64,000 nt of DNA from an uncultured archaeon (GCA_903842985.1 CAIMOB010000014.1:14897-78896); one strand, 5' to 3'; numbered from the stretch's first letter, positions 3,807 through 58,447 are shown. Notes: generated by a model from the sequence alone, not told the origin. Program-made: numbers and translations.

Positions 3807-4263
3807 GTTAAAAATTCTTGCAGAGAATTACATTATCGGCCTCCTGACGCACCCAGTGGAGTATATCAAGCCATTTTTTAGGATAATACCGCCGGAAAGC
3901 TCGTTTTTTTCGCCGGAGCTCAGGGAGGTCTATAAAATAATAATTGAGGAGACACCGCAGGAGTTGCCGCTGAAATCACCGTCAAACCACCAGACAGATT
4001 TTGTGGAGGATGATAAAATCGAGAAAGCGTTCAACCATCTGCGAATGAGGTACAAGGAGAAGAAGCTCAAGGCATTTCCAGCAAACCTGATACGCCGGCT
4101 GATGAATGGGGCGCCGAATGATTTTGAGAAGACAGCAACAACCCTGTTCCATATAGCAAAAGAAGACAGGAGAGCCAGGAAGCTGGAGGAGCTCATAAGG
4201 GCCAGCAGGGAATCAGACACAGAAACAGCTGAAAAAATCTCAACAGAGCTGCTGGAGATGTAG
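3772..4263 (+). CDS. hypothetical protein; possibly the detached C-terminal (helicase-interaction) domain of DnaG
   Basis: A 163-aa ORF that starts 35 nt before the primase stop in another reading frame. Combined with the primase it totals about 628 aa, close to full-length DnaG. A frameshift or split gene is plausible. Confidence 0.4.
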   Translation: MFQREDVARRAELKILAENYIIGLLTHPVEYIKPFFRIIPPESSFFSPELREVYKIIIEETPQELPLKSPSNHQTDFVEDDKIEKAFNHLRMRYKEKKLKAFPANLIRRLMNGAPNDFEKTATTLFHIAKEDRRARKLEELIRASRESDTETAEKISTELLEM

Positions 4264-22256: not shown

Positions 22257-25200
22257 TTATTTCCTCTCCTCAAATGGATTAACAAACTTGATTTTCTTGA
22301 ACTCCTTTTCATAAATCTCAGGCATCTTCTCCATTGTGAGTATTCTTTTCTTCCATACCTTGTGTGTGTAATGCGTGAGCGCGAATGTGATGTCCTTGCA
22401 TAGCTCCATAGGCAGATTGTATGTACCTTGTATCAGCTCAGCCTTCCACTCAAATTTTTTCTCAAGCTCGAATGCAACAAGATTTTTCAGCTCTTTGTAT
22501 TTTTCGCAGTTCTCCCTTAGAGTGTAAATCTTCCTGTATTCCCTTATCTTGTTCTCGCTGATTAATTTTTCAATTGTTTTGCTGTCTGCTACCAATACTT
22601 TTTTTGGCCAGAAAAGTATGAATAATGAAATCAACAAAGTAATTAATTTGATAATGATTAATGTGATGAAAATTATTTTAATTGTTTCGCTTCCGCCAGA
22701 ATTTGGAGCTGGGCTCTCTTTTTCTGGCGCTTTCTCAGGAGATTTTTCCTCTGTTTTTGCTTCAGCTAATTTTTTCTCCTCTTTTGCAGGTGTTCTTATG
22801 CCAGTTTCGTTTTCCTTTGGTCTTGTTATCAGTGGCGCAACGCCTCCGCCTTTCTTTTCTGTTGTTCCGCCGCTTGGCGCAGGCGTGCTGCTTGGCACAG
22901 CAACTGTTAAATTGTAAATCAAAGAAGCGCCTGTATTTCCAAGCTCATCTGTGCAGTTTACGCTCCAGTTGTACTTTCCATTGGTCAGTGTTCTTGTGAA
23001 GCTCTGCGCCATGCCTTTTGTTATTGTTGTGCCTGTTAAGATTATTGCTTTATTTATTATTAACGAGCAGTTCGAGATGCTGCTTGCATCGCTTACATTG
23101 TAATTGAATGTTGTCGATGCAGTTGTCCTTTTTGTGTTGTTTGCAGGCGACTCAAGCGAAACATCCGGCGCAGTTGTGTCCCTTATTGTTATGTTTATTA
23201 TTATTGAGCGCCTGTTATTCAGCGTGTCATTGACAGAGATGTTCAGCCATTTTGTTCCTATTGGCACTGATGTGCTCTCTTCTATTACGCCCGATGTTTT
23301 GTTTATCTTGAAGTAACCAGTGTCATTAATCCAGTACTGGCTTATGCCACTTGGGTCTGTCGCATTTACTTCATAGTAAAATATATCTCCTGCCTCAAGC
23401 GTCTTGTTTTTAGGCGTCTCTACCCATACGGGAGGGGTTGTGTCAACAATAAAGAATATCTGCTCTGAAGCGATGTTTTTTGAAGTGTCATTTGCATAGA
23501 TGGTTATGTTATTCAATCCTTCCTGACCTAAGAATGTTATGTTCTGGCACGAAGGAAGGTCCAGCCTGCTTCCTGTCACATTCACATACCAGCACTGCGA
23601 GACAGCTGTCTCGTCGCTGACAGTGTAGTTGAGAGTTATTACATTTGAATTGTGAAGCGAGTTGTTCTGCGGCAGAGAGACATCCAGAATAGGCGCTGTT
23701 GCATCAAGTGTGAAGACGATTGGGGTATCTGTATTTGCAGCGATGCTCTGCTTTGGGTTAACTGAGATGTTGTATACCTTATTATAATTTGCCGGAGTGA
23801 AATTCAGTTTTGCATTCACGAAACCATAGATATTAGTGTAGCCATACCATATGCTTTTGCTCCCGTTTGTCACATTCACCAGCCTGTTCACAGCAAAGCT
23901 TCCGTTTGTGTAGTTTACAATGACAGGATAGTACCTTAATAATTTGCCAGTGTACACCCTTACATTGCTTGGCATGTCAACATAGCCATAAATTTTTGGT
24001 GTATTGTTATATACTCTTACAGAGTTTGTGATGTTTGATTTTGGAAGCGTAAAATTAACTACCGAATTTCCCATAATATATGTAAGGTCATTAAAAATAC
24101 AATTCTTGAATTCGTTCTTTGAATAATTCAGTGTGTACATTCTGTTTTTGAAAGTAGAATTCTCAACGAAGTTGATGGAAGAATCTTTGAAATATGCATA
24201 ATAGAGTGCAGTAGAATTAATTATGGTGTTTACTGAATAACCCCCAAAATGCAATTGATCATATGTTTTAATATTTTTGATTAGGTGATTCTTGTTTCCT
24301 GACATATGCAGCTCAGACCCATTCAACAGGCTGTTTGTCAAGTTTAGATTGCCATAGACCCAAATTTTAAAATAGAATAATATATTGCTTCTGATAACAG
24401 AATCTTTTATATTTAGGCTGGCATTTTCACTGACATATATATTTTGATTGCCCGGCGCCTGAATTAGTGTGAATGTTGTGTTTTCAAGCGTCAAGGTGCT
24501 TGTATTTTCCAAGATCAGCGTCTGGTTTTTGAAATATAATATAGTATTGTTGCATATAACATCTGCATTCTCAATTGTCCAATTCGTGCCTGGCGGAGGC
24601 AGCCCGCAGCCAGGAAGAACATAAATATCGTCAGAAGTTTTGAAATATTCATAATTCGTTTCATTGCAGCTTATATTGTAATAGTAAGGTCCTGCGATTG
24701 TGAAGTTTCTTCTGAACTCAAACAATTTTGTTGATGCATTGTAATTCATCTGATTATTTAGGTCAGAGAAGCTTATGTTGCAGCTTCCTGCTGTTACTGG
24801 CGCTCCTGAAGTTCTGTTTGAGTAGTTTGCATAGAATGTTATTTCTTCGTGCGTTGTTCTGTTCATCCAGCCGCCTTCTGGGTCGTTTTCGTCAAATATT
24901 TTTAATTCTGAATTCGTTCCTGCGCTGTAATTCGAGAAACCGGCAACTTCAAATGTGAAATTCTCGCTATCATATCCTCTGCTTTTGCAGTTGGCGCAGA
25001 CAGCCCCGTTCTTTAGGGCAATAGGCGTTTTCTTGAAACTTAGGCTGTAGATTGTCAGATTCGCAGGCTTGTTAAATTCAGAATATTTGCTTGCGTTCAT
25101 ATAAACTGAATTAGCTCCAATCCTGAACGCCTCCGAAGCCCTTGTCAGGTCAGTTGTGCTTCCGAACTTTACCTTGCCATTCTCGGATTTCACTGAATCT

Positions 25201-26957
25201 TCTGTTGAATTTACCTGCAGGACAGCATTAACTGCCTGAAGAACATCTATTCGCGGGAATGTCAGGCCGGTTCTTGAAATGAAAACATTGGTTCTTGTCT
25301 TCAGCAGCTCTCTTACAACACTTGGAGTCGCATTTTTATGGTTAAGCAGCTTTTCCTTCTGATAAATCAATGCAGCAGCGCCTGCGACATGAGGAGTTGC
25401 CATGGATGTTCCGTGTTCTGTACGATAACCAGAGGCGCTGCAAAAAGTGCAGCTGCCTTTTGGCACAGTTGAATTTATCAAGTTTCCCGGCGCAAGCAGG
25501 TCGAGTATTCCTGCAGTTTTTGTGAAAAAGGAAATTGTGTCTACTGTTGCATTTATCGTAGAGCCGTCATTGGAAGAACCAACAGAAGTTGCATTTGGAG
25601 CACAGGCAGGGTATATAATTCCATTATTTCCTGAATCATCAACCACATTGTTTCCAGAAGCAGCCACAACAAAAATATTATTTGCAACAGCAAAATCAAT
25701 ATCATCTGCTATCAGCCCCCCATCAGGCGCTCCAGTGCCATGGCATTGTGTGTAACGATTGGTGTAATCTCCGTTGTCCCCCAGACTCATCGTTATTATG
25801 GAAATATTGTATCTGCTTTGGTTGTTAATGCACCAGTCAATGGCTGCAGCAGTAACTGACAGCGAGCCAGTCCCGTTTGAGTTCAATGCTTTGACCGCAA
25901 TAATCTTTGCATCAGGTGCAACACCTTTTAATTTACCATTTGCAGCAACAATCCCTGCAACGTGTGTTCCGTGGCCGTTGTTATCATAGGGATTATTGTT
26001 TTCAGAAGTGCAGTTTTCATCTGCGCAGAAATTATGCCCGCCAATTATTTTTGAATTGGGGAAGCTGTTTGAGCCGCCGAAATCAGAGTGATTGTATGCA
26101 ATTCCTGTATCAATGACACAGACGCCAACGCCTTTTCCTGTCAGGTTTATCCCGTTTACTTTCTCGCCCCACACCTGGTTTGCCTTTATCAGCGGAACAC
26201 TTTCGCTTAAGCTTATATGAACTGGCTTGTCCTCAACTATTTTTTTGATATCCTTATTTTCCTCTAATTTTTTAAGCTCGTCTTCAGTGACGCTCAATGC
26301 AAGCGCATTGACATTTGAGTATTTTTGCTTGATTTTCGTTTCATTTTTATTAAATGTCTTCTCAATCTCCTTCTGCGCAATGCCTATGTTTTCCCTTCTT
26401 AGTTTATTTTTGTCGCCTGAAACAGCAAACTTCTTTCCTTTCGGCTCGTTTAGTACGACAATAACATTAAACCTTTTCTCTTTCCTGGTTTCGCTCAGAT
26501 TCTTTTCAATCTCTGGCTTCCTTTTTTTCTCAATCCATGTTAAGTTCTGCACAACATAGCTTGCCTTTTTCAGCTCAAGTGTTCCATTTAATTTTATGAT
26601 TAATTCAAAGCTTGTCTGGTTGAATTCGTCGATTGAGCAGGTTTCTTTGCATTTGTCTGCAAAATTTTCAGAACTGCTGGCTATCAAATATGTTCTGTTT
26701 GCAGATTTAAGATAAATCTCAGCACTTCCGTTAACATTTCCAGTCAGCTTGAAGCTTGTCAATCTTGGAACTCTTGGCGATTCAAGGTTAACTGTCAAAT
26801 TCATTGAGGAATTCAATGTCAAATTAATGTCTTTTTCATAGCTTAAATCATTGACATTCTGCCAGAACAATCCAGTTATATTTGGATTAGAGAATGCAAA
26901 GACTAGCGCAACTATCAAGACAATGCCTATGCCCACTTCTTTTAGCTTTAGCCTCAT
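22257..26957 (-). CDS. giant cell-surface subtilisin-like (S8) serine protease/adhesin with C-terminal transmembrane anchor and cytoplasmic tail
   Basis: Signal peptide. The S8 catalytic triad motifs are VIDTGIAYNHSDF (Asp), HGTHVAGIVAAN (His) and GTSMATPHVAGAAALI (Ser). Long N-glycosylation-sequon-rich beta domains follow, then a T/P/E/K-rich linker, one hydrophobic helix (IIFITLIIIKLITLLISLFILFW) and a charged cytoplasmic domain of about 110 aa. Confidence 0.8.
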   Translation of the reverse strand: MRLKLKEVGIGIVLIVALVFAFSNPNITGLFWQNVNDLSYEKDINLTLNSSMNLTVNLESPRVPRLTSFKLTGNVNGSAEIYLKSANRTYLIASSSENFADKCKETCSIDEFNQTSFELIIKLNGTLELKKASYVVQNLTWIEKKRKPEIEKNLSETRKEKRFNVIVVLNEPKGKKFAVSGDKNKLRRENIGIAQKEIEKTFNKNETKIKQKYSNVNALALSVTEDELKKLEENKDIKKIVEDKPVHISLSESVPLIKANQVWGEKVNGINLTGKGVGVCVIDTGIAYNHSDFGGSNSFPNSKIIGGHNFCADENCTSENNNPYDNNGHGTHVAGIVAANGKLKGVAPDAKIIAVKALNSNGTGSLSVTAAAIDWCINNQSRYNISIITMSLGDNGDYTNRYTQCHGTGAPDGGLIADDIDFAVANNIFVVAASGNNVVDDSGNNGIIYPACAPNATSVGSSNDGSTINATVDTISFFTKTAGILDLLAPGNLINSTVPKGSCTFCSASGYRTEHGTSMATPHVAGAAALIYQKEKLLNHKNATPSVVRELLKTRTNVFISRTGLTFPRIDVLQAVNAVLQVNSTEDSVKSENGKVKFGSTTDLTRASEAFRIGANSVYMNASKYSEFNKPANLTIYSLSFKKTPIALKNGAVCANCKSRGYDSENFTFEVAGFSNYSAGTNSELKIFDENDPEGGWMNRTTHEEITFYANYSNRTSGAPVTAGSCNISFSDLNNQMNYNASTKLFEFRRNFTIAGPYYYNISCNETNYEYFKTSDDIYVLPGCGLPPPGTNWTIENADVICNNTILYFKNQTLILENTSTLTLENTTFTLIQAPGNQNIYVSENASLNIKDSVIRSNILFYFKIWVYGNLNLTNSLLNGSELHMSGNKNHLIKNIKTYDQLHFGGYSVNTIINSTALYYAYFKDSSINFVENSTFKNRMYTLNYSKNEFKNCIFNDLTYIMGNSVVNFTLPKSNITNSVRVYNNTPKIYGYVDMPSNVRVYTGKLLRYYPVIVNYTNGSFAVNRLVNVTNGSKSIWYGYTNIYGFVNAKLNFTPANYNKVYNISVNPKQSIAANTDTPIVFTLDATAPILDVSLPQNNSLHNSNVITLNYTVSDETAVSQCWYVNVTGSRLDLPSCQNITFLGQEGLNNITIYANDTSKNIASEQIFFIVDTTPPVWVETPKNKTLEAGDIFYYEVNATDPSGISQYWINDTGYFKINKTSGVIEESTSVPIGTKWLNISVNDTLNNRRSIIINITIRDTTAPDVSLESPANNTKRTTASTTFNYNVSDASSISNCSLIINKAIILTGTTITKGMAQSFTRTLTNGKYNWSVNCTDELGNTGASLIYNLTVAVPSSTPAPSGGTTEKKGGGVAPLITRPKENETGIRTPAKEEKKLAEAKTEEKSPEKAPEKESPAPNSGGSETIKIIFITLIIIKLITLLISLFILFWPKKVLVADSKTIEKLISENKIREYRKIYTLRENCEKYKELKNLVAFELEKKFEWKAELIQGTYNLPMELCKDITFALTHYTHKVWKKRILTMEKMPEIYEKEFKKIKFVNPFEERK

Positions 26958-27328: not shown

Positions 27329-30300
27329 TCAACAAGCTGGTCCGCCCACTAACCAAGAATCATGGCAGACGCATTTTAAATGGCGGAGATAGCTTTTAAT
27401 TGTGTCATTAAACTCCGCTGCAGTTGACAGCGGAATTGTTTTTACGTATGTCCCTCCAGATGTTTCTTGACAATAGTCAACGTTGTAATTCAATGCATCA
27501 ACCTGCGCTTTTGTAGAAATGTTATTTCCTGGCGTCATATATTCATCCCCTATCTGGGTATTAAGGTCGTCATAGCGGTCCCATACAGCATTGATAGCTA
27601 TTGGCACTATAATCAATGTTGTATTGACATCATACCATGGATCACCCCAGTCAGTTGGCAAAAACTGGAAATAATCCCTGTAAATTGGATCAGCAATTAC
27701 ATCAGCTTCATTTTCTGTCATGTAAACAGTTACATTTTCGTATCGAACAGCTTTGTTCCCTGCCTTGTCTGTTGCAGTTGCTTTTGTAACATAATGCCCG
27801 CTTACATTATATCTAATATTTATCTCTCCCATATCGCTGCCAGGCCCTGAGTAATCAACATCATTGTCTTTTATGCCGTCTCCGCTGGAGTCTGTGTTTA
27901 TGTCTTTGTCTAAGGTAACGTTTATGCTGGCGTCTGTTCTGCCTTCTATGTACACCATCTGCGCAGCAAGTGTTCCTGGCTGCGGCGGATCAAGCGCACT
28001 ATAATAAAACTTATATGGTCCTTCCATTCCTTTGTACTCAGTTAAGTAGCCTCCAATATAACCATAGATCATTTGACCAAAATTAGGCGGTGTTGTGTCC
28101 CTTATGATAAAGAAATCTCCAAGCTTATGCATCTTCCCCCATCTCAAATTATCATATGCATGAATTTCATATCTTCCAGGCCCCCAGTTGCAGGGTATGT
28201 AAACCTTGTAGTTCTTGTTGTGCTGTTTATTGTCGTTTGGCAGGAACAGGTTCTCAGAGGATTTGCTCTGGTTTCCGCAGTAGACAGTTTTTCCGTTTAC
28301 AGCACAGGGAATTGGAGCGCTTTCAACACCGCTTATTGCTGTATGGTTCTCTACAATAAACGTGACAGTTGTGTCATTGTAGCCGTTGTTTATGCCGAAC
28401 ATGTTGAAATTAACATATTCGTTGCAAGTGTAGTTATTATTTCCTTCATACCTTCCTGAATAGATTATGTGCCCATCAACATTCAGGTTCTTGTAGTATG
28501 TTGAGTTCTGGTCAACATCTGAATTGTGCGAACCTGTGTCGCACCAGTCATCATCAAAGTCATTCCAGTTCTTTATGCCGTCATGGTCGCAGTCATCTGT
28601 GTAGGGAGTTGTGTTCTGCGGAGGCCAGGTGTAATTGTACAATTCAACAAGTATGACAGCATCGTTGTAGTCAAAGTCAGGCATGATGCTCTTTTTCACG
28701 TCAAGGTCCTCGAAATAAATTCTCCAGGTGTCATAGTCAAGCCTGTCAACTATTGCATAGCTCGAGTTTGAATAATGGTCATAATCCATTTTCGTTGGGC
28801 AGTATCCTTGCAGGCAGTGCACCCTAATGTACAGCAAAATCTCTGTCAGCGCATTTATCTTCTGCCCATTGTTGAGCACAACAGACTTTCCTGTTGAGGT
28901 GTTCGCGACAAGCATGGCACTGTAGGGCTTTGCAAGGCGAAGGTCTGATTTCAGGCCAGCCTCTGCTTTTTCAAAAAGGACTCTTACGTTGCCTGTTTCA
29001 GGCAGTATTATCAGTTTGTCCGCTGTTGGCTGAGTGCTCATCTTGTGGTCAAAATCCTTTTCATCGGTTCCCTCAATGACAATATTTACATACTTCGTGC
29101 TTGCTGTTGAGAATCCATAATAAGCGCCGTTTGCGTCTGTCACAGCGTCAGGAATAGGCTTCGGCTGCAGTGCAGAGTAATTTCCTGTCATGTTCTCAGC
29201 ATTCCATACTGTGTTGTTGTAAAAGGATATGTTTTCTCCTGCAATTGGCAGGCCGGTGTCTGTGTCAAACACCCTTCCATAGACATTCGGAATCCAGTTT
29301 GAGCAGCTTGGGTAAGTGCCATTCCAGTCAAGGCTGTGAAAGTTGCATACATCCACTGTGCTGTTGCTTCCGTCATAGCATTCGGAATTTACATGGCATG
29401 ACTGATGTGCATGAAGGATTATTGACTTTGAAACATTTTCAATGCCGTCGTTTGCATTCAAAGTTATGTTATAATCTCCGTATTGCGTTGAATTAGGCAT
29501 CCAAATGATTGTTTTATTTATGAAAACAGCTCCAGCAGGAAGGTTCTGCACAGAAATGTTGACTGTCCCATTATCGGGGTCGCTGACATTTATATGTATA
29601 TTCGCGTTGTACGTGCTCCAGGCTTCGCTGTCGCCCGTGAGTATTACAGGAGGAGCGTTCATGTATGTGTTGTTTGCGTAGACATTATTTGAGCTGTTTG
29701 CCCTGTATCCGCCGAAATTGAGCAGGTTTTTTGTTATAGAATTTCCTATTGAATTATAGCCAAGCAAAATTGCAGTTGCACTGTTGTGCGTAACATTGTT
29801 TTTGTAGACTATGTTGTTCTTGTTTCCAATCCCTCTTGATGGAACAATGTCATTCATCAGCAGAACGCCCTCAAATGCATTATTCTTCACGTTGTTGCTT
29901 CTTATCTCGTTGCTGCTTGAGTTGAAAAGCGCGATTCCAGGACCTAAATTGTTCAGGACATTGTTATTAACAATATAATTTAGCCCTGCGCTTCCGACGT
30001 AGATTCCTGAATAAAATCCTCTTTTGCTTTCAGTCACATCAAATCCGCCGTTTCCTGTCAGGTTGTTGCCAACAACATAGTTGTGCACTGCATTGTTGTT
30101 ATTGTTTCCAGTAATCTGTATTCCTGCATTTGAATTGTAGTTCACAATGTTGTTTGTGACATTGTTATAGTCATTGCCGTTCTGGAGCGTGATTCCGTAT
30201 TGCTGGCTTTCAATAATATTATTCTTTATTACATTGTATTTGCAGCTTGTTGCATCATCCAATATCTCTGATGGAACAAGATTAATTCCTCTTTTGGTAT

Positions 30301-31369
30301 TGAATCTTAAGGTATTTCCTGAGATTGTGTTATGAGAAGCATCAACAAGCTCGATGCCAGCAGTTGTGCTGTTTGTTATGATATTATTGGTTAATATATT
30401 GCTGTTGGAATTTTCAAGATAGATTCCTTTGCTGTACTTCTTAATATTGCAGTTCTTTATTGTGTTGCCATTGTAGCCGTTGCTGTAAATTCCATACCCA
30501 GCGCCATTGCCGACAATTACTGAATTATTACAGTCCAACACAATATTGTTTGCTCCAATCTTCAGTATTCCGTCGCCATTCGCGTCGTTTGTGTTGTATG
30601 TTCCTGCGCAGAGAACTGCGCTTACATTAACAACTAAGTCATCAACAACATGCGCGCACGGCTTCCCGCTTTCCTGTGAAGTGTAATTCGTGAAATGCTG
30701 GACAGTGAATGTCAAATCCCCGTTTGTATAGCTGATAATATTGCAGTCAGTGCATTTGCTGTCGTCTTGTAAGATAACAGGATTGCTGAAAGACAAGCCA
30801 TACAATGTTAATGTTGCCGGCTTGTTCAGCTCCGGCAGATTATTTGAGTCAACTGAAATAAAATTATTGGATATCTGGACATAAGCATCAAGGTTTGTAT
30901 TTGAAATATCAACAGACTGCCCGCTGAAATCGATTTTTCCACTGTTCGGGACTTCAAGCACCAAATCATTGACAGAAGTTAAATCGCTTTCCTGCGAAAA
31001 ATCAGTTGTGTCGCCTGAAAACTCTGTCGCGTCAGGAATGTTTGAGCTTGAACCTGAATTGCTTGAACCGCCTGAACTGCCTCCTGAAGAGGTTTTCTTG
31101 CTTGTACTTGAGCCTGCGAGAATATTATACGTAAACTTTGTTTGGTTTTGGGTTACAGCTGTCTGATTTTTGCTTGGCTCTTGAACTTTATTCTGTGAAC
31201 TTTCATTTACAACCGCAGGAGTCTCATTCGCTTCTGCTGCCTTCAATTCCGAAGAAGCTGTTCTGTCATAAATCACATTCCCTGTAATCACACCTTTGCT
31301 GCAGCCGTAGAGAAATATAGTTAAGACTGCCAGAATCAATACGCCCCATTTTTTATTTTTCTGGTTCAT
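27329..31369 (-). CDS. giant secreted lipoprotein with right-handed parallel beta-helix (NosD/PbH1-type) repeats
   Basis: Signal peptide ending LYGC (lipobox). Repeated N-x-I-x-x-N/beta-helix segments follow (NNIITNSTTAGIELVDASHNTISGNTLRFNTKRGINLV and many more). C-terminal Cys-rich end. Confidence 0.7.
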   Translation of the reverse strand: MNQKNKKWGVLILAVLTIFLYGCSKGVITGNVIYDRTASSELKAAEANETPAVVNESSQNKVQEPSKNQTAVTQNQTKFTYNILAGSSTSKKTSSGGSSGGSSNSGSSSNIPDATEFSGDTTDFSQESDLTSVNDLVLEVPNSGKIDFSGQSVDISNTNLDAYVQISNNFISVDSNNLPELNKPATLTLYGLSFSNPVILQDDSKCTDCNIISYTNGDLTFTVQHFTNYTSQESGKPCAHVVDDLVVNVSAVLCAGTYNTNDANGDGILKIGANNIVLDCNNSVIVGNGAGYGIYSNGYNGNTIKNCNIKKYSKGIYLENSNSNILTNNIITNSTTAGIELVDASHNTISGNTLRFNTKRGINLVPSEILDDATSCKYNVIKNNIIESQQYGITLQNGNDYNNVTNNIVNYNSNAGIQITGNNNNNAVHNYVVGNNLTGNGGFDVTESKRGFYSGIYVGSAGLNYIVNNNVLNNLGPGIALFNSSSNEIRSNNVKNNAFEGVLLMNDIVPSRGIGNKNNIVYKNNVTHNSATAILLGYNSIGNSITKNLLNFGGYRANSSNNVYANNTYMNAPPVILTGDSEAWSTYNANIHINVSDPDNGTVNISVQNLPAGAVFINKTIIWMPNSTQYGDYNITLNANDGIENVSKSIILHAHQSCHVNSECYDGSNSTVDVCNFHSLDWNGTYPSCSNWIPNVYGRVFDTDTGLPIAGENISFYNNTVWNAENMTGNYSALQPKPIPDAVTDANGAYYGFSTASTKYVNIVIEGTDEKDFDHKMSTQPTADKLIILPETGNVRVLFEKAEAGLKSDLRLAKPYSAMLVANTSTGKSVVLNNGQKINALTEILLYIRVHCLQGYCPTKMDYDHYSNSSYAIVDRLDYDTWRIYFEDLDVKKSIMPDFDYNDAVILVELYNYTWPPQNTTPYTDDCDHDGIKNWNDFDDDWCDTGSHNSDVDQNSTYYKNLNVDGHIIYSGRYEGNNNYTCNEYVNFNMFGINNGYNDTTVTFIVENHTAISGVESAPIPCAVNGKTVYCGNQSKSSENLFLPNDNKQHNKNYKVYIPCNWGPGRYEIHAYDNLRWGKMHKLGDFFIIRDTTPPNFGQMIYGYIGGYLTEYKGMEGPYKFYYSALDPPQPGTLAAQMVYIEGRTDASINVTLDKDINTDSSGDGIKDNDVDYSGPGSDMGEINIRYNVSGHYVTKATATDKAGNKAVRYENVTVYMTENEADVIADPIYRDYFQFLPTDWGDPWYDVNTTLIIVPIAINAVWDRYDDLNTQIGDEYMTPGNNISTKAQVDALNYNVDYCQETSGGTYVKTIPLSTAAEFNDTIKSYLRHLKCVCHDSWLVGGPAC

Positions 31370-40191: not shown

Positions 40192-40677
40192 ATGCTCAAA
40201 GAACAAATAGAAAGTGTAGAGAAGAGTCCAGAGTTCAAGAAGCACAAGAATCTTTACCTGGCGCACGTCTTCTTCATGCTGGATGAACCGAATAAGGATA
40301 TTGTGCAGGTAGGCTACTGCACGCCCGAGCAGAAAATAGTCACATTTGTGATAGACGGGAAAAAAATCACAGCAATCCCCGAGGCAATGCCATACAAAAA
40401 CCCGAAGGCAAAAATAAGGAAGCTTGAGATGTCAAATGTGAAAGTCGGGCTTGACGATGCGCTGAAAGCGGCAAAAGAAATTCAGGAGAAGAAGTACAGG
40501 CAGCACGTTCCTTTCAAGCAGATAATCATCCTGCAGAACATTGACGAGGGGCAGGTTTGGAATATTACCTTCATAACTCAGTCATTCAATACACTTAACA
40601 TCAAAATCAGCACAGAAACAGGGAAAGTCGTTAAAGATGAGCTTATATCTTTGGTTGATTTTGACCATTCTTCTTAG
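40192..40677 (+). CDS. hypothetical protein
   Basis: A 161-aa ORF. Confidence 0.4.
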   Translation: MLKEQIESVEKSPEFKKHKNLYLAHVFFMLDEPNKDIVQVGYCTPEQKIVTFVIDGKKITAIPEAMPYKNPKAKIRKLEMSNVKVGLDDALKAAKEIQEKKYRQHVPFKQIIILQNIDEGQVWNITFITQSFNTLNIKISTETGKVVKDELISLVDFDHSS

Positions 40678-41389
40678 AAATCAAATGCAGAATTATTCCT
40701 ACGGCAGCCAGCACAGCTCCGCTAATGAGAAGCTTCAGGAAAATTGATGTGAACGAGCTGAATATTATCTCAGACACCTGTTCAGGGACGTCTCCCATCT
40801 GCGTCTTGAAATAGTTCAGGAAGAAATAATTCAATCCAACAATAACCATGCAGATGCCCGGGTTAATTAGCTTTGACCATCTTCTTGAGGAGATTACGAG
40901 GATAGCCAAAGACATGACAATGCCGGCAAGAAGATAGCACGCAAGCCTAAAATAGAAATCATGCGCTTTTTTTGAAATCAGAAGGAAAAATTTTTCCTGA
41001 CCTTCTGCCTTGTTAAGGCAGTTCATGAAATTGCAGTTGTATACCTTGTAATAAATATTTTCAAACATCGCAACTCCGACAAGCGAAGGCAGTTCAGAAG
41101 CATTTGTTTCCTTTACCTTGGCGCAGTCAATAACTATCTCCTGGTTTTCAAGCGGAAACTCCACTCTGTTAACCAATTTGCATGAGATAAGAAGTGCTGA
41201 CCTGATAAGCGCCAGCTGGTCTGCACTAACCTTGTCGCCCATCTGCTCTTTTACCACATCAGCAAAGAACGGAGCCAGATGGTCATAGTCAGTGAACTTG
41301 TAAAGCCCGTATGGGATGACAGCAAGCGCTAGAAAAATGCAGAAAAATATACATCCGAGATATTTTCCAACGCCTCTTAGTGCGCTCAT
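40643..41389 (-). CDS. hypothetical membrane protein
   Basis: 248 aa with several hydrophobic helices. Confidence 0.45.
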   Translation of the reverse strand: MSALRGVGKYLGCIFFCIFLALAVIPYGLYKFTDYDHLAPFFADVVKEQMGDKVSADQLALIRSALLISCKLVNRVEFPLENQEIVIDCAKVKETNASELPSLVGVAMFENIYYKVYNCNFMNCLNKAEGQEKFFLLISKKAHDFYFRLACYLLAGIVMSLAILVISSRRWSKLINPGICMVIVGLNYFFLNYFKTQMGDVPEQVSEIIFSSFTSIFLKLLISGAVLAAVGIILHLISKKNGQNQPKI

Positions 41390-41598
41390 TTAACATGGAT
41401 GCAGTGCACAGGGCAGACAGCTTCAGCTTCCTTGCAGCAGCCCGCGTCTTTCAGTTCAAGCTCGAAGTTCTCGCCTTTCTGGACCGCGCCCTTCAGCATG
41501 GACTTGCCGTCGTCACCCATCTCAAAAAAGTCAGAGCAGACTCCTGTGCAGGCGCCGCAGCCTATGCATTTCTCTCTTTCGTGTATCACTTTTGCCAT
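41386..41598 (-). CDS. small ferredoxin-like iron-sulfur protein
   Basis: CIGCGACTGVC ... CCKEAEAVCP Cys clusters. Confidence 0.55.
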   Translation of the reverse strand: MAKVIHEREKCIGCGACTGVCSDFFEMGDDGKSMLKGAVQKGENFELELKDAGCCKEAEAVCPVHCIHVK

Positions 41599-42293
41599 TA
41601 GGCTCCTCTTATCCTAACATCTTTTATAAATCTTTTCAGGATTTCAGCAAGCTCCTGCAACTCCTCAAGAGTGTAGGATTTAGCGTCCCTTAATTTTTTG
41701 TCCATGGCGTTCTCCGGCCTGAACCGCTGCAGGCACACCTTCTTTGCGCCCTTCAGCAGCTGACTGATTTTTTCAATTGTTTCGCTGTTGACGAATTTTG
41801 GCACAGCAGTTATCCTGAATTCATATTGAATCTTCCCATTCATCAGGAAACTGGCGCTTTCCCTTAATTTTTTAATGTCAACATCGGCATTTGTTATCTT
41901 GGGATAATCCTCAAAAAGACCTTTTATGTCCATTGCAATGTAATCAACAAGGTTTTCCTCTGCAAGTTTTTTCAGAACGCCGGGAAATGAGCCGTTTGTG
42001 TCAACTTTTACAAAGAGCCCGAGCTTCTTGAATTTTCTGCAAAGCTCCGCAAGCTCAGGATGCATGCATGGCTCTCCGCCCGTGATTACAACAGCGTCAA
42101 CAAAATCAGAATGGCTCTTCAGGTACTCTTCGATTTTCTCTAACCTGACTGTCTCAAGCGTCTCCGGCTCAAGCACAAGCTTCTGGTTGAAGCAGAAGCC
42201 GCACCTGAAGTTGCAGTTAGGCAGGAATACGACAGCGCTTATTTTCCCGTCGTAATCTACAAGAGAATTTTCAATGAAGCCCTTTATTTCCAT
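41598..42293 (-). CDS. nrdG: anaerobic ribonucleoside-triphosphate reductase activating protein (radical SAM)
   Basis: PNCNFRCGFCFN (CxxxCxxC). It sits in the nrdD operon. Confidence 0.75.
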   Translation of the reverse strand: MEIKGFIENSLVDYDGKISAVVFLPNCNFRCGFCFNQKLVLEPETLETVRLEKIEEYLKSHSDFVDAVVITGGEPCMHPELAELCRKFKKLGLFVKVDTNGSFPGVLKKLAEENLVDYIAMDIKGLFEDYPKITNADVDIKKLRESASFLMNGKIQYEFRITAVPKFVNSETIEKISQLLKGAKKVCLQRFRPENAMDKKLRDAKSYTLEELQELAEILKRFIKDVRIRGA

Positions 42294-42540
42294 TATTCAG
42301 TACGACCAAGATGTCTTCCTTTTTCGGCACTTCACCCCTGAAGCCCATCACTTCGTGCTCGTCATTCACAATTATTATTGACGGAGTGCTCATCACAGTG
42401 TAAAAGCTTGCCTCTGCAAGCCCGTCCCTTTCCTCAATATCAAAATATTCAATGGGGCACTGGTCCTTCAGGTCATCGCAGAGTACCTTTGCAGCAGGGC
42501 ATTTTGGGCAGTTTTTTTTCGTGAACAGCTTTATTTTCAT
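42271..42540 (-). CDS. glutaredoxin-like small redox protein
   Basis: The CPKCP active-site motif near the N-terminus. 89 aa. Confidence 0.6.
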   Translation of the reverse strand: MKIKLFTKKNCPKCPAAKVLCDDLKDQCPIEYFDIEERDGLAEASFYTVMSTPSIIIVNDEHEVMGFRGEVPKKEDILVVLNNGNKGLH

Positions 42541-44621
42541 GTGAAAAACCCCTGGTTCCTGTACCTGTCCTTCAGCTCAGCTATCTTTCCCTGGTTCCAG
42601 CCGCTTGTCTTTGAGAAATAACCGGTAACCCTTGTGATGCCGTCGACATTTACGGAGCCGCAGTAGCTGCATTTTTCCTTTATCCCTCTTGCTGTCCTGC
42701 CGCAGTCAAGGCAGTTCGTGAACTCGGGGCTGAATGCTATCTGCGAATTCTGCGTATTCTTGAATGACTTTACAACAAAATTTGCAATTGATTCTGTGCT
42801 TGGCCTGGATTCGCCAAGCCAAATGTGCGATATTGCGCCTGCTTCTATGAGCGGATGGAACAGCCCCTCATCCCTGACCCTGTCAATTGGGTTTATCGGC
42901 TCTGAGATGTTAAGCAGCGTCGAATTTGTGTAGTAAATGCTGTTTGTGCTTATGTCCCCCTTGATTACCTGGCTTGTCTGCAGTGCATAGCTTTTGTAGT
43001 CAAGCTTTGCCATCCTGTATGCAGTTGATTCAGCAGGGGTCTGTTCAAGCACGAACTTGAGCCCAAACTCATCTTTCAGCTTCTCGCATTCCCTGTTCAT
43101 GTGCGCTATAACTTTCAGGCCGAACTTCATCGCCTTGACTGACTGATGAAGCTCTTCGCCTGTCATGTACTGCACAAGTTCGTTCAGGCCCAGCATCCCA
43201 ATCAGGAATGTTGCCCTGTTCAGCCTGTAATAAGGCTCGCCGTCAAGCTCCATTGCAAGAAGATTAAGCGGGCCTTTGCTGCCCAGGTTAAGGATAGAGG
43301 CAATAAATTTCTTTTTCTGCTGATGCGCTTTTGCAACAAGCTTCATCCTGTCTGTGATAATCTCAAACATCCTTGTCTCATCCCTTGATGATTCATAGCC
43401 TATTCTTGGAAGGTTTATTGTGACGTTCTGCATTGCGCTGTATCTCATTTTCCACGGCTGCTTTGCATCCTCCAGGTCAGACGCCTCCAGCTTGAATGCG
43501 AGCCTGCAGCACTCGCTTATCTTTGCAGTGTCGCCTCTGTCCATGACAAAATAGCTGTTTCCCTTCACAGCCGCGACCTCGCATATCTTGTTCAGAATTT
43601 CCTCATTTCCGTCTGTCTTGAAGAATTTGTCTGTGATGTGGATGTCCGGCTTCGGGAAAAAGAACGGCCTTCCTGTCTTGTCTCCTTCAAGGTAGACATC
43701 CATCAGCGTGCTCATGAACCGCTGTGATTCATCAATGTAATCAGAATATGTATTCCCGGTGTAAACGCCGCCGGGGCCTATTGCCTTTACATCTGCAAAG
43801 TGCTTCGGAATCTCCCAGTAAAGGTTTATGTCAGAAAATATTGACTGCCCCCCTCTTGCAACTGCCTGCTGGGCAAACTCAAAAATAAGATTCTGCGAAA
43901 GCTGCTTCAGCTCACTGTCGCCGATGCCTTTAAGGTAAGGCGCGACAAAAATATTCAGGGCGTCCCAGCCGATTGCACCTGCAAAGCTTCCCTGCAGGCA
44001 TGCGCTCATCTTTAGCAGATGCCCAAGCAGTACAAAAGGATGTTTTGCAGGGCCTGCAATTGAGATTGCATTAGGAAGGTTAAGCCCGAATTTCTTGACG
44101 TATTCTATCGAGTTGCCTGAGCAGTAAGGCCTGTCAATCATGCCGAGGTCGTGGAGATGAATCTGCCCCAGCATGTGCGCCTCTGCAACATCCAGCGAGA
44201 AAACATTAAGCAATGCATATTCCTGCTTTATCCCCTCTGCCAGCGTCATGTTCGTGGCTTCTGGCCCGTGCGGGACATTCGCGTTTGCCTTGTTCTGCGC
44301 AGTTATTATGTTTTCAACGTCGTAAACAGGAAATCCCAGCCTTGAGTGCTTTCTTCTTACGTCTTCAAACCCGTATTCGAAAAGCTTTGCGTTTGTCAGC
44401 TCCCTGATCAAGGGCGCAGTGATGTTTCTTATCTTTGTGTTGGCAATCATATTCTCGACTTCTTTGGCAATTATGTGCGCAATCCTCGGGTCTATGCCTG
44501 TCTCCCTCACAAGCGCATCAACAATCCTCTGCGGGTCCCATTTCAGGATGCGCTGGTCAGAAGTCTGTACAAAAAGAATAGAGTCTGTGCTTTCTTTCTT
44601 TGTCGTTATCTGTTCCATCAT
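42537..44621 (-). CDS. nrdD: anaerobic ribonucleoside-triphosphate reductase (class III RNR)
   Basis: C-terminal zinc ribbon CLDCGRTARGIKEKCSYCGS, then the glycyl-radical motif RVTGYFS. Confidence 0.85.
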   Translation of the reverse strand: MMEQITTKKESTDSILFVQTSDQRILKWDPQRIVDALVRETGIDPRIAHIIAKEVENMIANTKIRNITAPLIRELTNAKLFEYGFEDVRRKHSRLGFPVYDVENIITAQNKANANVPHGPEATNMTLAEGIKQEYALLNVFSLDVAEAHMLGQIHLHDLGMIDRPYCSGNSIEYVKKFGLNLPNAISIAGPAKHPFVLLGHLLKMSACLQGSFAGAIGWDALNIFVAPYLKGIGDSELKQLSQNLIFEFAQQAVARGGQSIFSDINLYWEIPKHFADVKAIGPGGVYTGNTYSDYIDESQRFMSTLMDVYLEGDKTGRPFFFPKPDIHITDKFFKTDGNEEILNKICEVAAVKGNSYFVMDRGDTAKISECCRLAFKLEASDLEDAKQPWKMRYSAMQNVTINLPRIGYESSRDETRMFEIITDRMKLVAKAHQQKKKFIASILNLGSKGPLNLLAMELDGEPYYRLNRATFLIGMLGLNELVQYMTGEELHQSVKAMKFGLKVIAHMNRECEKLKDEFGLKFVLEQTPAESTAYRMAKLDYKSYALQTSQVIKGDISTNSIYYTNSTLLNISEPINPIDRVRDEGLFHPLIEAGAISHIWLGESRPSTESIANFVVKSFKNTQNSQIAFSPEFTNCLDCGRTARGIKEKCSYCGSVNVDGITRVTGYFSKTSGWNQGKIAELKDRYRNQGFFT

Positions 44622-44637
44622 AAAACACCTCTTAATT

Positions 44638-45081
44638 TTATTTTTTTAATAATTTAATTTCCTGCTCAAATTCCTTTGGATTGTCAAATGACTTGCAGAC
44701 AGAAGCGAAGCGCATGTAGGCAACCTGGTCAAGCGCCATGAGCTTTTTCATGACCATGTCCCCGATTATGCTGCTTTTTATTTCCGTGCCTTTCCTTTTC
44801 CTTATGCTCGCTTCGATGCAGTCAGCAATCAGATTTATCTTTTCAGCTGTCACAGGCCTTTTTTCGCAGGCAAGCTGCATGCCCTTGATTATTTTCTCCC
44901 TGCTGTAGGGCTCTTTCGCGCCATCGCGCTTCATTACGCAGATGTCGAGCCACTTCACCCTTTCCTGCGTTGTGAATCTTTTTGCGCAGCTCAGGCACTC
45001 CCTCCTGCGCCTTATCTCATTCTCGGAATTTCTCTTGTCGACGACCTTTGTTTCGCTTTTTCGGCAGTAGGGGCATTGCAT
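44638..45081 (-). CDS. nrdR: transcriptional repressor NrdR (Zn ribbon plus ATP-cone)
   Basis: MQCPYCRKSETKVVDKRNSENEIRRRRECLSCAKRFTTQERV is the NrdR N-terminus. I trimmed the start to the Met of MQCPYC. Confidence 0.85.
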   Translation of the reverse strand: MQCPYCRKSETKVVDKRNSENEIRRRRECLSCAKRFTTQERVKWLDICVMKRDGAKEPYSREKIIKGMQLACEKRPVTAEKINLIADCIEASIRKRKGTEIKSSIIGDMVMKKLMALDQVAYMRFASVCKSFDNPKEFEQEIKLLKK

Positions 45082-45087
45082 CTTAAA

Positions 45088-45135
45088 CCACAATATCTTG
45101 TGGTTGTTTTCGTTGAAATACACAAGATATAGTTA
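45088..45135. promoter_or_regulatory. two NrdR-box-like 16-bp elements (CCACAATATCTTGTGG and ACACAAGATATAGTTA), centres 32 bp apart, directly upstream of nrdR
   Basis: The first element is dyad-symmetric (CCACAA/TTGTGG arms). Both approximate the bacterial NrdR-box consensus acaCwAtATaTwGTgt, and the spacing matches the tandem-box arrangement. Confidence 0.5.
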
Positions 45136-45468
45136 TATTAAGTAATAACCTCCCCTATTTAAACATTTATATTTTTTAAAATATCTAGTGCAAAATATAT
45201 GATAGAAAAAGCCACCATACACAAGTAAAAAAAATTTAAATCAACATTATTTTTATTATAGTTATAGCATACACTCTTCAAAATATACTTTTAAGCTTAA
45301 TGATGCTTAAATACTAACTTGAATTACAGCCAATAGATGGCTTTAATGACAAAAAGAGAGGCGGCAGTTGGCAACAAGCCAAAGGACATAAGCTACGAGA
45401 CAATAAAGAACAACAAATCTCTTTCTGAGTTTCTTGAAGAAAAGCAGGAATAAGTCTCAATAGAGAAA

Positions 45469-46999: not shown

Positions 47000-48034
47000 A
47001 TGATTATTGGTCTTACGGGAACTCTTGGCTCTGGAAAAGGAACAGTTGCAGAATTCTTCAGGAAAAAAGGATTTGGCTACCTGTCGCTTTCAGACGAATT
47101 AAGGGATGAGGCGAGAAAAAGAAAGATTGAGATTACAAGGGACAGCCTGCAGGCTCTGGGCAACAAATTAAGGGAGGAGCAGGGTCCAGGTGTGCTTGCG
47201 AAGCTCGTTCTGGAGAGGATAAACAAATACAACTTAATGGATGCTGTGGTTGACGGAATCAGGAACCCTGCTGAGATTGCTGAGCTGAAAAAACTGCCTC
47301 ATTTCTTTCTTGTTGCTGTCGATGCGCCTGAAAAAACAAGATTCGAGAGGATGAAGTCAAGGAACAGGGAGAATGACCCGAAGACATTTGACGCCTTCAA
47401 AAAAGTTGATGCAAGGGACAGGGGAAAGGGAGAAAACGCATCTGGCCAGCAGGTTGGGAAATGCCTGAAGCTGGCTCCTGTTTTAATCAGGAATGACAGT
47501 ACAGTGAACGAGCTCAACAGCAAGGCAGAACTTCTTCTTAAAAAACTTAAGGAAATCGAGATAAAAAGGCCAAGCATAGATGAATATTTTCTTAAAATCG
47601 CTTCTGTTGTCGCAGAGCGCTCAACCTGCAGAAGGCATCACATCGGCGCAGTTATCGCCAGGGACAAGCACCTTCTTACAACAGGTTACAACGGCGCAGC
47701 AGCAGGAATCAAGGACTGCCTTGAGCGCGGCTGCATAAAAGATGAGCTGAAGCTCGCATCCGGCACAAGGCATGAGATATGCAGGGCGATTCACGCAGAG
47801 CAGAATGCAATAATTCAGGCGGGGCTGCACAATGCAGATACAAAAGGCGCAACAATCTACTGCACGCATTCGCCGTGCAATGTCTGCGCAAAGATGATTG
47901 TGAACGCAAAAATAAAAAGATATGTGACCTACGGAACTTATGCTGACAAATCGTTCCTTCCATTATTCAGAGAGGCGAAAATAGAATATGTTGAGATGAA
48001 AGAGCCGAACATGAAGATAAACAAGCTCAAATAA
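47000..48034 (+). CDS. fusion protein: N-terminal P-loop nucleotide/nucleoside kinase plus C-terminal dCMP deaminase (zinc-dependent)
   Basis: N-terminal IIGLTGTLGSGKGTVAEFF (P-loop). C-terminal HAEQNAIIQA ... PCNVCAKMI (H-A-E / PCxxC zinc-binding deaminase motifs). Confidence 0.75.
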   Translation: MIIGLTGTLGSGKGTVAEFFRKKGFGYLSLSDELRDEARKRKIEITRDSLQALGNKLREEQGPGVLAKLVLERINKYNLMDAVVDGIRNPAEIAELKKLPHFFLVAVDAPEKTRFERMKSRNRENDPKTFDAFKKVDARDRGKGENASGQQVGKCLKLAPVLIRNDSTVNELNSKAELLLKKLKEIEIKRPSIDEYFLKIASVVAERSTCRRHHIGAVIARDKHLLTTGYNGAAAGIKDCLERGCIKDELKLASGTRHEICRAIHAEQNAIIQAGLHNADTKGATIYCTHSPCNVCAKMIVNAKIKRYVTYGTYADKSFLPLFREAKIEYVEMKEPNMKINKLK

Positions 48035-57259: not shown

Positions 57260-58447
57260 TTAAATGCTGTCTCTCAACAGCTTCACTGCCTTTGTCTTCA
57301 ATGCCTTGTCAAGCGGAACAGATACTTTCCTGCTCTTCTTTTCCAGGCTTTTCAGCCAGCCAACTTCTGCGCTTATCAATGATGATTCACTTAGGTTCAC
57401 CAAAAATGACCTTATCCTTCTCTCTGTCAGCGGCTCGACATTGTACGACGGGCAGAGCTCCAGGTATTTCCTGTAAATCTCCACGCCGTCCATCTCAAGC
57501 CCTTCTTTTTCGTTCTTCAATATTGCATAATACAATATTTTCTGGTGCTTTGGAAGGCTTGCAATCACATTCAAGACAGAGTTCTCCTCTAGGCTCTTGT
57601 CTGCAGAGTCCACAAGATCAATTGTTATCTTGGTTCTCTTCCTTGCGATTGCCGCCTTTGCGCAGGCATCAACAAGCTCCAGGGCTCTTCGAGCGTCACC
57701 GCCCCGTTGAGCTTCGATTTCCGCTATTTTCCTGATAACTGAATCTGAAACTGTATCTTTCTTCAAAGCCAGCTTGACTCTTTCGTTTATTATGTCGAAA
57801 AGCTCGTCAGCATTGTACGGCGAGAATATTACCTTGACCCTGCCGAACGCTGACTGCGTCTTTGGCTTTATGTAATCTGAAACCCTTACATCATTTGAGA
57901 TTATGATTGTTGATGTATTTGCGCTCACCTGGTTGTTTATCCTGCTCAGCCTGTAAAGTATGTCATCGCCTGATTCTCTCAAGGCGTAATCAACTTCATC
58001 CAGGATAACAAGTACGTTCTTGTTCTCCTTCTTGTTCAGCACCTTGCTGAACTCGTCAACTGTCTTAGCCCTGTTCCACCCCATCTTTGGATATTTTCCT
58101 TCAGGGTCAACTTGACTTAATGTGCTCAGCAGAATAGATGTTTCTGTCCTGTTCTCTGAGCAATTCACGTAAGCCTTTTTCAGTTCAATGTTGCGTTTCC
58201 TTGCCTCCCCCTCTAGCTCATCCAGCAAATCCAGCAAAAGCGCTGTCTTTCCTGTTCCAGGCGGTCCGTAAACGAACACGCACGAAACAGCGGATTTCAT
58301 CAGTATAGGCGCAAGCTCCATAACCAGCTCGTTTTTCTGCTTTGTTCTGTGCAGGAAGCCTGTTGGAGGCCTCAGCGAGAACAAAACATCCCTGTCCTTG
58401 TAGATGGGATTTTCGAGCACGCTTGCGAATGTTATCTCTTTTTCCAT
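57260..58447 (-). CDS. orc1: Orc1/Cdc6 replication initiator
   Basis: Walker A VFVYGPPGTGKTAL and Walker B VLVILDEVDYAL, with a C-terminal winged-helix region. Confidence 0.85.
   Translation of the reverse strand: MEKEITFASVLENPIYKDRDVLFSLRPPTGFLHRTKQKNELVMELAPILMKSAVSCVFVYGPPGTGKTALLLDLLDELEGEARKRNIELKKAYVNCSENRTETSILLSTLSQVDPEGKYPKMGWNRAKTVDEFSKVLNKKENKNVLVILDEVDYALRESGDDILYRLSRINNQVSANTSTIIISNDVRVSDYIKPKTQSAFGRVKVIFSPYNADELFDIINERVKLALKKDTVSDSVIRKIAEIEAQRGGDARRALELVDACAKAAIARKRTKITIDLVDSADKSLEENSVLNVIASLPKHQKILYYAILKNEKEGLEMDGVEIYRKYLELCPSYNVEPLTERRIRSFLVNLSESSLISAEVGWLKSLEKKSRKVSVPLDKALKTKAVKLLRDSI

Follow-up and report, generated by a model that had tools for sequence, protein, structure and literature searches.

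The 48-bp element at 45088-45135 of the window (the whole 64,000-nucleotide stretch of DNA from an uncultured archaeon analyzed here) is very probably the paired NrdR operator of the downstream nrdR-RNR operon, through which the operon would be repressed when dNTPs are plentiful. The evidence consists of the features of the sequence and their statistics, the identity and residues of the repressor, conservation across DPANN and the coupling of the genes. The element combines the box positions, the linker length, the location in an RNR-operon promoter and the cognate NrdR of a known NrdR operator with conservation among relatives. A first-pass annotation of this DNA had proposed such an operator, and the proposal is borne out by the sequence itself, by the DNA-reading residues of the repressor and by conserved pairs in relatives.

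Operator boxes

The NrdR site consists of two partially palindromic 16-bp boxes that lie 15-16 bp apart (PMC13584703; PMC9110341), and its highly conserved box positions are C4, A6, A8, T9, T11 and G13 (PMC13584703). The corresponding parts in the window are:

45088..45103, minus strand: proximal NrdR box, gene strand CCACAAGATATTGTGG, perfect 6+6 palindrome, 22.0 bits
45104..45119, minus strand: linker between the boxes, gene strand ATTTCAACGAAAACAA, 16 bp
45120..45135, minus strand: distal NrdR box, gene strand TAACTATATCTTGTGT, imperfect palindrome, 13.2 bits

On the plus strand, the boxes read CCACAATATCTTGTGG (45088-45103) and ACACAAGATATAGTTA (45120-45135). All six conserved positions are present in both boxes (6/6 each), and each box has three mismatches to ACACWATATATWGTGT; the window holds four such matches, with 0.47 expected. 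The boxes occupy positions -7..-22 and -39..-54 relative to the nrdR ATG, their centres are 32 bp apart, and the pair stops 6 nt short of the ATG. The coordinates, the 32-bp centre spacing and the placement 7-54 bp upstream of the ATG, all given in the first-pass annotation, were recovered when re-derived from the sequence, as was the 6+6 palindrome that it had described as perfect CCACAA/TTGTGG arms in the proximal box; the arms of the distal box form only three of six pairs. Its comparison to a bacterial NrdR box is right for the motif, with the six positions in both boxes and the 16-bp linker, but not for the setting, the host being archaeal by its marker proteins and by the relatives of its NrdR.

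Both boxes stand out in a scan with a position weight matrix (PWM), symmetrised and built from 22 boxes of bacterial loci only: among all window positions, the proximal box ranks first (22.0 bits) and the distal box second (13.2 bits), giving a pair score of 35.2 bits. Simulated DNA reached at most 16.1 bits in 200 Markov-1 windows (12.8 Mb) and 17.1 bits in 100 x 64 kb (6.4 Mb) with the local AT-rich spacer composition. In NrdR sites, a linker of 15-16 bp sets the box centres 31-32 bp apart, a 26-27 bp spacing being a rarer alternative. The 64-kb window contains one correctly spaced core pair, with about 0.025-0.045 expected; the PWM scan found no second box pair elsewhere in it, and the next-best single matches, at 57530 and 33539, are unpaired and lie within ORFs. 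A box match by chance draws some support from the commonness of single six-position cores, which are not enriched in the window (11 found, about 20 expected). Set against this, the sole correctly spaced pair lies 6 nt from nrdR, its 35.2 bits compare with no more than 17.1 in simulation, and the arrangement recurs in independent loci; the probability of a chance match is close to negligible.

The first-pass annotation expected further boxes at nucleotide-metabolism promoters such as the tmk-thyA side, and this check came out negative: the thyA-tmk/dcd divergent promoter has no NrdR box, its best PWM score being 0.1 bits. The negative thyA-tmk result does not refute the operator, because NrdR is described as specific for RNR genes (PMC9110341) and because, across DPANN loci, it is at RNR promoters that the motif is enriched. 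The regulon visible in the window is the RNR operon alone, as expected for a repressor of this specificity.

Repressor and operon

The boxes precede a compact set of genes, all on the minus strand:

44638..45081, minus strand: nrdR, predicted to bind the boxes, 147 aa, PF22811 58 bits, PF03477 78 bits
44626..44631, minus strand: Shine-Dalgarno-like GAGGTG within the 16-bp nrdR-nrdD gap
42537..44621, minus strand: nrdD, class III (anaerobic) RNR with N-terminal ATP-cone, PF13597 459 bits, PF03477 28 bits
42271..42540, minus strand: thioredoxin/glutaredoxin-like protein (Thioredoxin_3, Pfam), its ATG overlapping the nrdD stop
41598..42293, minus strand: nrdG-type radical-SAM activase (Pfam), 23-nt overlap with the preceding gene
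41386..41598, minus strand: small 4Fe-4S ferredoxin (Pfam), stop/start overlap with nrdG
40643..41389, minus strand: orf248, 248-aa predicted membrane protein without a family match, its start overlapping the ferredoxin stop

The order nrdR-nrdD-grx-nrdG-fdx had been read from the sequence in the first pass, and each of these genes is matched by Pfam; the 16 bp then given between nrdR and nrdD is also what was measured (nrdR stop at 44638, nrdD ATG at 44621). Stop/start overlaps link nrdD to trx, trx to nrdG, nrdG to fdx and fdx to orf248. Because its start overlaps the ferredoxin stop, orf248 is probably the last gene of the operon, which by this gene layout would comprise six genes, from 45081 to 40643. 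With nrdR first in order, the coupling of the genes fits an autoregulated nrdR-RNR operon of the nrdRJ type.

The last nrdR codons (AAATTATTAAAAAAATAA; 44622-44660, minus strand) are AT-rich and include lysine codons, about 20-35 nt upstream of the nrdD ATG. This AT-rich 3' end of nrdR could be a candidate internal TATA-like promoter that frees nrdD from control. The Pfam-identified neighbours of the operon are thymidylate kinase, thymidylate synthase and a kinase-like/dCMP-deaminase fusion. In the last of these (47000-48034, plus strand), a P-loop kinase-like domain (AAA_17/AAA_18) is fused to dCMP deaminase, and the same fusion directly follows nrdR-nrdJ in a Woesearchaeota relative (L085 6477-7450; L086 6671-7450). 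The shared fusion suggests a recurring dNTP-metabolism neighbourhood.

The repressor consists of a Zn_ribbon_NrdR domain and an ATP-cone (Pfam), and its residues 1-145 align with the solved E. coli and S. coelicolor NrdR proteins (E ~1e-32). DNA contacts and specificity have been tied to Zn-ribbon residues D15, R17 and the RRRR stretch by cryo-EM and mutagenesis of the S. coelicolor protein (PMC9110341). In the homologue alignment, D15, R17 and R24-R27 (RRRR) are invariant, as are C3, C6, C29 and C32, which make up both CxxC pairs; the ATP-cone signature is likewise kept in the window NrdR.

The position of the boxes depends on where nrdR starts. The mechanical ORF call begins the gene at a GTG at 45123. 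The ATG at 45081-45079, from which the protein begins MQCPYC, is the universal start in an alignment with 32 homologues, and the distances of the boxes from the gene given above follow from taking this methionine as the start. The public protein of a 93% relative (P0001, 161 aa; L084 637-678) also begins at the upstream GTG, and such a start (window 45082-45123) would put the proximal box and the linker into coding sequence. Because the alignment shows MxCPYC to be the true start, the upstream GTG appears to be a wrongly annotated start codon, by which the operator is concealed.

Conservation across DPANN loci

Archaeal nrdR loci were drawn from species-representative genomes and from contigs encoding the closest proteins, and the 250 nt upstream of nrdR were scored with the bacterial-only PWM. 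Pairs with 15-16 bp linkers, at most 250 bp upstream of nrdR, are present in eight independent DPANN loci and score 26.3-36.1 bits (L085, 26.8; L087, 33.4; L088, 27.4; L090, 26.3; L091, 26.7; L092, 36.1; L094, 29.4; L095, 35.1). A ninth independent locus, L097, has a 38.9-bit pair whose near end is about 245 nt from nrdR, on the upstream side. Among 132,475 background positions in these loci, no score exceeds 12.8 bits; this highest value belongs to a site in L025 that itself resembles a box and lies some 2.1 kb upstream of nrdR. A stricter scan for pairs, which required at least 5/6 core positions per box and covered 80 genome loci, found pairs upstream of nrdR in about 12 bacterial and 0/7 archaeal loci; it missed degenerate partners and was therefore replaced by the PWM. 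A metagenome scan with a single protein yielded three loci, one of them from a close relative. L082 and L083 were rejected as archaeal loci: they group with bacteria and carry a TTGACA -35.

In most archaeal loci collected, nrdR is the first gene of the RNR operon. The class of RNR that follows varies among the pair-bearing loci, being nrdD or a class I/II-type large subunit. L090 has the gene order of the window, nrdR-nrdD-trx-nrdG, and L091 has nrdR-nrdD-nrdG; in L085, L088, L092 and L095, nrdR is followed by a class I/II-type large subunit, and L087 reads nrdR-dcd/dut-RNR. The archaeal box consensus is AYACAATATRTTGTGT, in which A6, T11 and G13 reach 100%, C4 96%, A8 88% and T9 80%; it is partly circular because the boxes were chosen with the bacterial PWM. 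A neighbour-joining tree, drawn without bootstrap, places 19/19 sampled DPANN NrdRs in a single clade, separate from the 73 bacterial sequences included.

Not every DPANN locus has the full pair. In L003, L004, L036 and L096 (operators at 3935-3981, 3947-3993, 3924-3970 and 380-426, respectively), the proximal box is strong and its partner, 15 bp upstream, is only a half-site, ATACAAT or TAACAAA; L006 has a pair with a 13-bp linker (3870-3914), and in L002 and L093 the bacterial PWM detects no box upstream of nrdR. Both boxes are reported to be required for NrdR binding (PMC13584703), yet some relatives have no full pair, so either operator strength must vary or the requirement may differ there. 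The variants with a half-site or a 13-bp linker may be operators of low strength, or they may be read in another way.

In the two closest relatives (L084 and L081; 91-93% NrdR identity), the boxes have changed only at positions 7 and 10, neither of them one of the six conserved positions, and two of the 16 linker positions differ. The closest genomes are 92% alike overall, too similar to show selective constraint on the operator.

The more distant loci bear on whether the boxes are a non-functional relic, left by an nrdR-RNR cassette that was transferred from bacteria with its operator attached. NrdR is mainly bacterial, transferred nrdR-RNR operons are documented in haloarchaea (PMC3019208), and the window NrdR is 42-52% identical to bacterial NrdRs and 47-55% identical to other archaeal ones, all of which would fit such a transfer. 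However, the six positions and the 15-16 bp linker have been retained across the DPANN NrdR clade at 30-40% protein distance, a divergence over which a neutral relic would have decayed. Among the pair-bearing DPANN loci, moreover, the linker sequences are unrelated and the downstream RNR classes differ; the DNA-reading residues of NrdR are invariant, and the operator keeps a consistent position relative to the archaeal TATA box. A relic is very unlikely.

Host and promoter geometry

The host is a DPANN archaeon. The nearest named relatives of its NrdR are from Woesearchaeota, Nanoarchaeota, Aenigmarchaeota and Micrarchaeota, and the window encodes RtcA along with archaeal marker proteins that score above their cut-offs: TFS (TFS_arch; 98 bits, cut-off 65), aIF-2/aIF5B (758 bits, cut-off 555), archaeal signal peptidase I (sigpep_I_arch; 67 bits, cut-off 52) and an Orc1/Cdc6 replication initiator (57260-58447, minus strand; 289 bits, cut-off 181). 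The intergenic DNA flanking the Orc1/Cdc6 gene might hold a replication origin. A full bacterial-type DnaG primase, with a CHC2 zinc finger, a catalytic core and Toprim, is encoded at 2409-3806 (plus strand) in this otherwise clearly archaeal window (TIGR01391, 314 bits, cut-off 283.6). Adjacent genes encode two predicted surface proteins of very large size: an S8 subtilase of 1566 aa (22257-26957, minus strand) and a beta-helix/NosD-like protein of 1346 aa (27329-31369, minus strand) with a weak Nup98-type autopeptidase match of 27.9 bits, just under the cut-off.

As the host is archaeal, the promoter that matters is of the BRE/TATA type, not -35/-10. A bacterial sigma-70 promoter overlapped by the boxes was considered and rejected, given the archaeal host and a gene strand lacking a sigma-70-like site; the promoter/terminator scan gave no sigma-70-like match on the nrdR gene strand and no enrichment of such sites. 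Archaeal elements are found upstream of the operator instead:

45164-45170, minus strand: A-rich BRE-like stretch preceding the TATA box
45156..45163, minus strand: candidate archaeal TATA box TTTAAATA, ending 20 nt before the distal box and 74 nt before the nrdR ATG

The octamer TTTAAATA is invariant in L084 and L081. In 12/12 archaeal loci a TATA-like octamer precedes the operator, with 4-36 nt (mostly 13-28) between its end and the distal box; this count was obtained with a regex partly widened post hoc, the a-priori patterns matching 8/12.

Where window genes have a TATA-like octamer, it mostly lies 22-23 nt from the ATG, with 12 of 28 matches in the 20-24 nt bin. Examples of the 22-23 nt spacing are the genes starting at 1581, 8229, 11859, 16971, 38271, 58620 and 61174. 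This spacing points to mostly leaderless mRNAs and calibrates the distance from TATA to start. Applied to the TATA position at nrdR, it predicts a TSS at about 45133 (+/-3), at position 3 of the distal box and thus on the operator's upstream edge. The operator would then span about -2 to +46 relative to this TSS, and the predicted nrdR leader of about 52 nt would be almost all operator. Together with thyA and dcd, both of which have a GGTG-type Shine-Dalgarno sequence, nrdR is among the few window genes with predicted leaders.

Divergent from nrdR, a 38-aa ORF (MALMTKREAAVGNKPKDISYETIKNNKSLSEFLEEKQE) without a family match occupies 45337-45453 (plus strand). Its ATG follows the end of the octamer CTTAAATA by 23 nt, as is typical of leaderless genes in this genome, and an inverted repeat, TTTAAGC-N8-GCTTAAA (45290-45311), overlaps this TATA. 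L084 and L081 both keep the ORF open and at equal length; 5 of the codon changes are synonymous and 7-8 non-synonymous.

The same geometry bears on the idea that the core promoter (TATA) is formed by the AT-rich box centres or by the linker, the likeness to NrdR boxes being incidental. In its favour, ATAT stands at the box centres and TTT(T)AA opens several archaeal linkers; a TATA placed where the linker begins would set the TSS just past the proximal box. But the linkers of the window (ATTTCAACGAAAACAA), L085, L088 and L094 do not resemble TATA; at 22-23 nt from the nrdR ATG there is no TATA-like octamer, and the perfect TTTAAATA is upstream of the operator. Nor does simulated AT-rich DNA ever approach the observed pair score, and the GC-containing arms (CCACAA/TTGTGG) are not promoter features. 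We give this idea a very low probability indeed.

Alternatively, the palindromes could act in RNA, with hairpins in the leader of about 52 nt controlling translation or stability in place of a protein operator. A hairpin of 6-7 bp, which is also the centroid structure, can fold from the proximal box at a distance of 6 nt from the AUG; the terminator scan flags this hairpin, though on the antisense strand, and no canonical Shine-Dalgarno sequence precedes the nrdR ATG. The right arm of the proximal box (TGTGG) was considered as a Shine-Dalgarno sequence and rejected for poor complementarity to the usual archaeal anti-SD. The leader as a whole shows no significant folding (z = -1.56), 17/200 shuffles folding at least equally well, and the distal box is a poor palindrome with 3/6 arm pairs. 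Across loci, conservation extends beyond mere complementarity to specific bases and a fixed distance between the boxes; terminator-like matches show no enrichment (1 found, 0.9 expected), and an Rfam scan of the window gave tRNA only and nothing in the operator region. Control at the RNA level is therefore highly improbable, and a protein operator is preferred.

Proposed repression

For this operator, binding, its nucleotide dependence and the step of initiation that is blocked are inferred, as is the position of the TSS. By analogy with its bacterial counterparts, NrdR carrying dATP plus ATP (or ADP) would form a tetramer, whose two Zn-ribbon pairs would sit on both boxes, about three helical turns apart, with the DNA sharply bent. 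NrdR loaded with ATP alone would instead form oligomers that do not bind DNA. When dNTPs are plentiful, bound NrdR would turn off transcription of nrdR-nrdD-trx/grx-nrdG-fdx(-orf248) and, sitting on its own promoter, would limit its own synthesis. With the operator placed over the predicted TSS, the step repressed would be the recruitment of RNA polymerase: NrdR on its boxes would occupy about -2 to +46, DNA that the polymerase has to cover, the TATA box would stay free, and RNA polymerase would be kept from the TBP/TFB-promoter complex.

Relation to known systems

The closest parallel is nrdRJ of S. coelicolor, in which nrdR is likewise the first gene of an RNR operon and controls itself, two 16-bp boxes with conserved C4/G13 pairs lie about three helical turns apart, and the Zn-ribbon of NrdR carries the same D15, R17 and RRRR (Rozman Grinberg et al., 2022, PMC9110341). 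The S. coelicolor operon encodes a class II RNR, its linker is 15 bp, and its boxes overlap -35/-10 (PMC9110341). By contrast, the window combines an archaeal host, class III nrdD/nrdG and a 16-bp linker with an operator placed at BRE/TATA and the predicted TSS.

In E. coli, nrdR is not known to be linked to the RNR genes. The nrdDG operons of E. coli and Listeria monocytogenes resemble the operon described here in being class III operons with paired boxes and a 15-16 bp spacer near the start codon; in L. monocytogenes, box 2 is 13 bp from the ATG (PMC12051234, PMC12176259). As described there, these bacterial operons do not include nrdR, and their promoters are of the sigma-70 type; here nrdR leads the operon. 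Among archaea, the haloarchaeal nrdR-nrdA/nrdB operons also begin with nrdR; they belong to Halobacteria, encode class I RNRs and are attributed to recent bacterial transfer (Lundin et al., 2010, PMC3019208). The window differs from them in its DPANN lineage, its class III RNR and an NrdR that belongs to a DPANN-wide clade.

Archaeal repressors such as MDR1, Phr, LrpA and the TrmB family bind downstream of TATA, over the TSS, and block RNA polymerase recruitment. The NrdR operator occupies a similar position relative to BRE/TATA and the predicted TSS, and a similar exclusion of the polymerase, with TBP/TFB bound, is inferred for it. MDR1, Phr, LrpA and TrmB are helix-turn-helix proteins unrelated to NrdR. 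NrdR, by contrast, is built of Zn-ribbons with an ATP-cone, and at two sites it sharply bends the DNA.

Estimates of the archaeal distribution of NrdR vary: it is reported in 22% of archaeal genomes (PMC13584703), as controlling "a few archaeal RNRs" in a study whose box survey was restricted to bacterial genomes (PMC12051234), and as having no archaeal orthologues in a preprint (10.1101/2025.03.28.645925). Within the searchable literature, a full-text search found no paper naming both NrdR and DPANN, and no description or test of archaeal NrdR operators was found there.

Implications

Beyond the single locus, the balance tilts slightly towards a DPANN-wide, vertically maintained NrdR regulon, in which a bacterial-type repressor that senses dATP/ATP would act on the TSS of an archaeal BRE/TATA promoter and the operator would double as a rare leader. 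The type of switch is known; what is added is its archaeal promoter context and its conservation across DPANN. Work on NrdR has treated it as a regulator of bacteria and as a target for antibacterials. In practical terms little is gained: better annotation of the start codon and a 57-bp substrate for binding studies. If true, the circuit would join a very small set of cis-regulatory circuits open to reconstruction in DPANN archaea and would provide a concrete case of NrdR working with the archaeal (eukaryote-like) transcription machinery. It would also indicate that dedicated transcriptional control of dNTP supply is retained in very reduced genomes.
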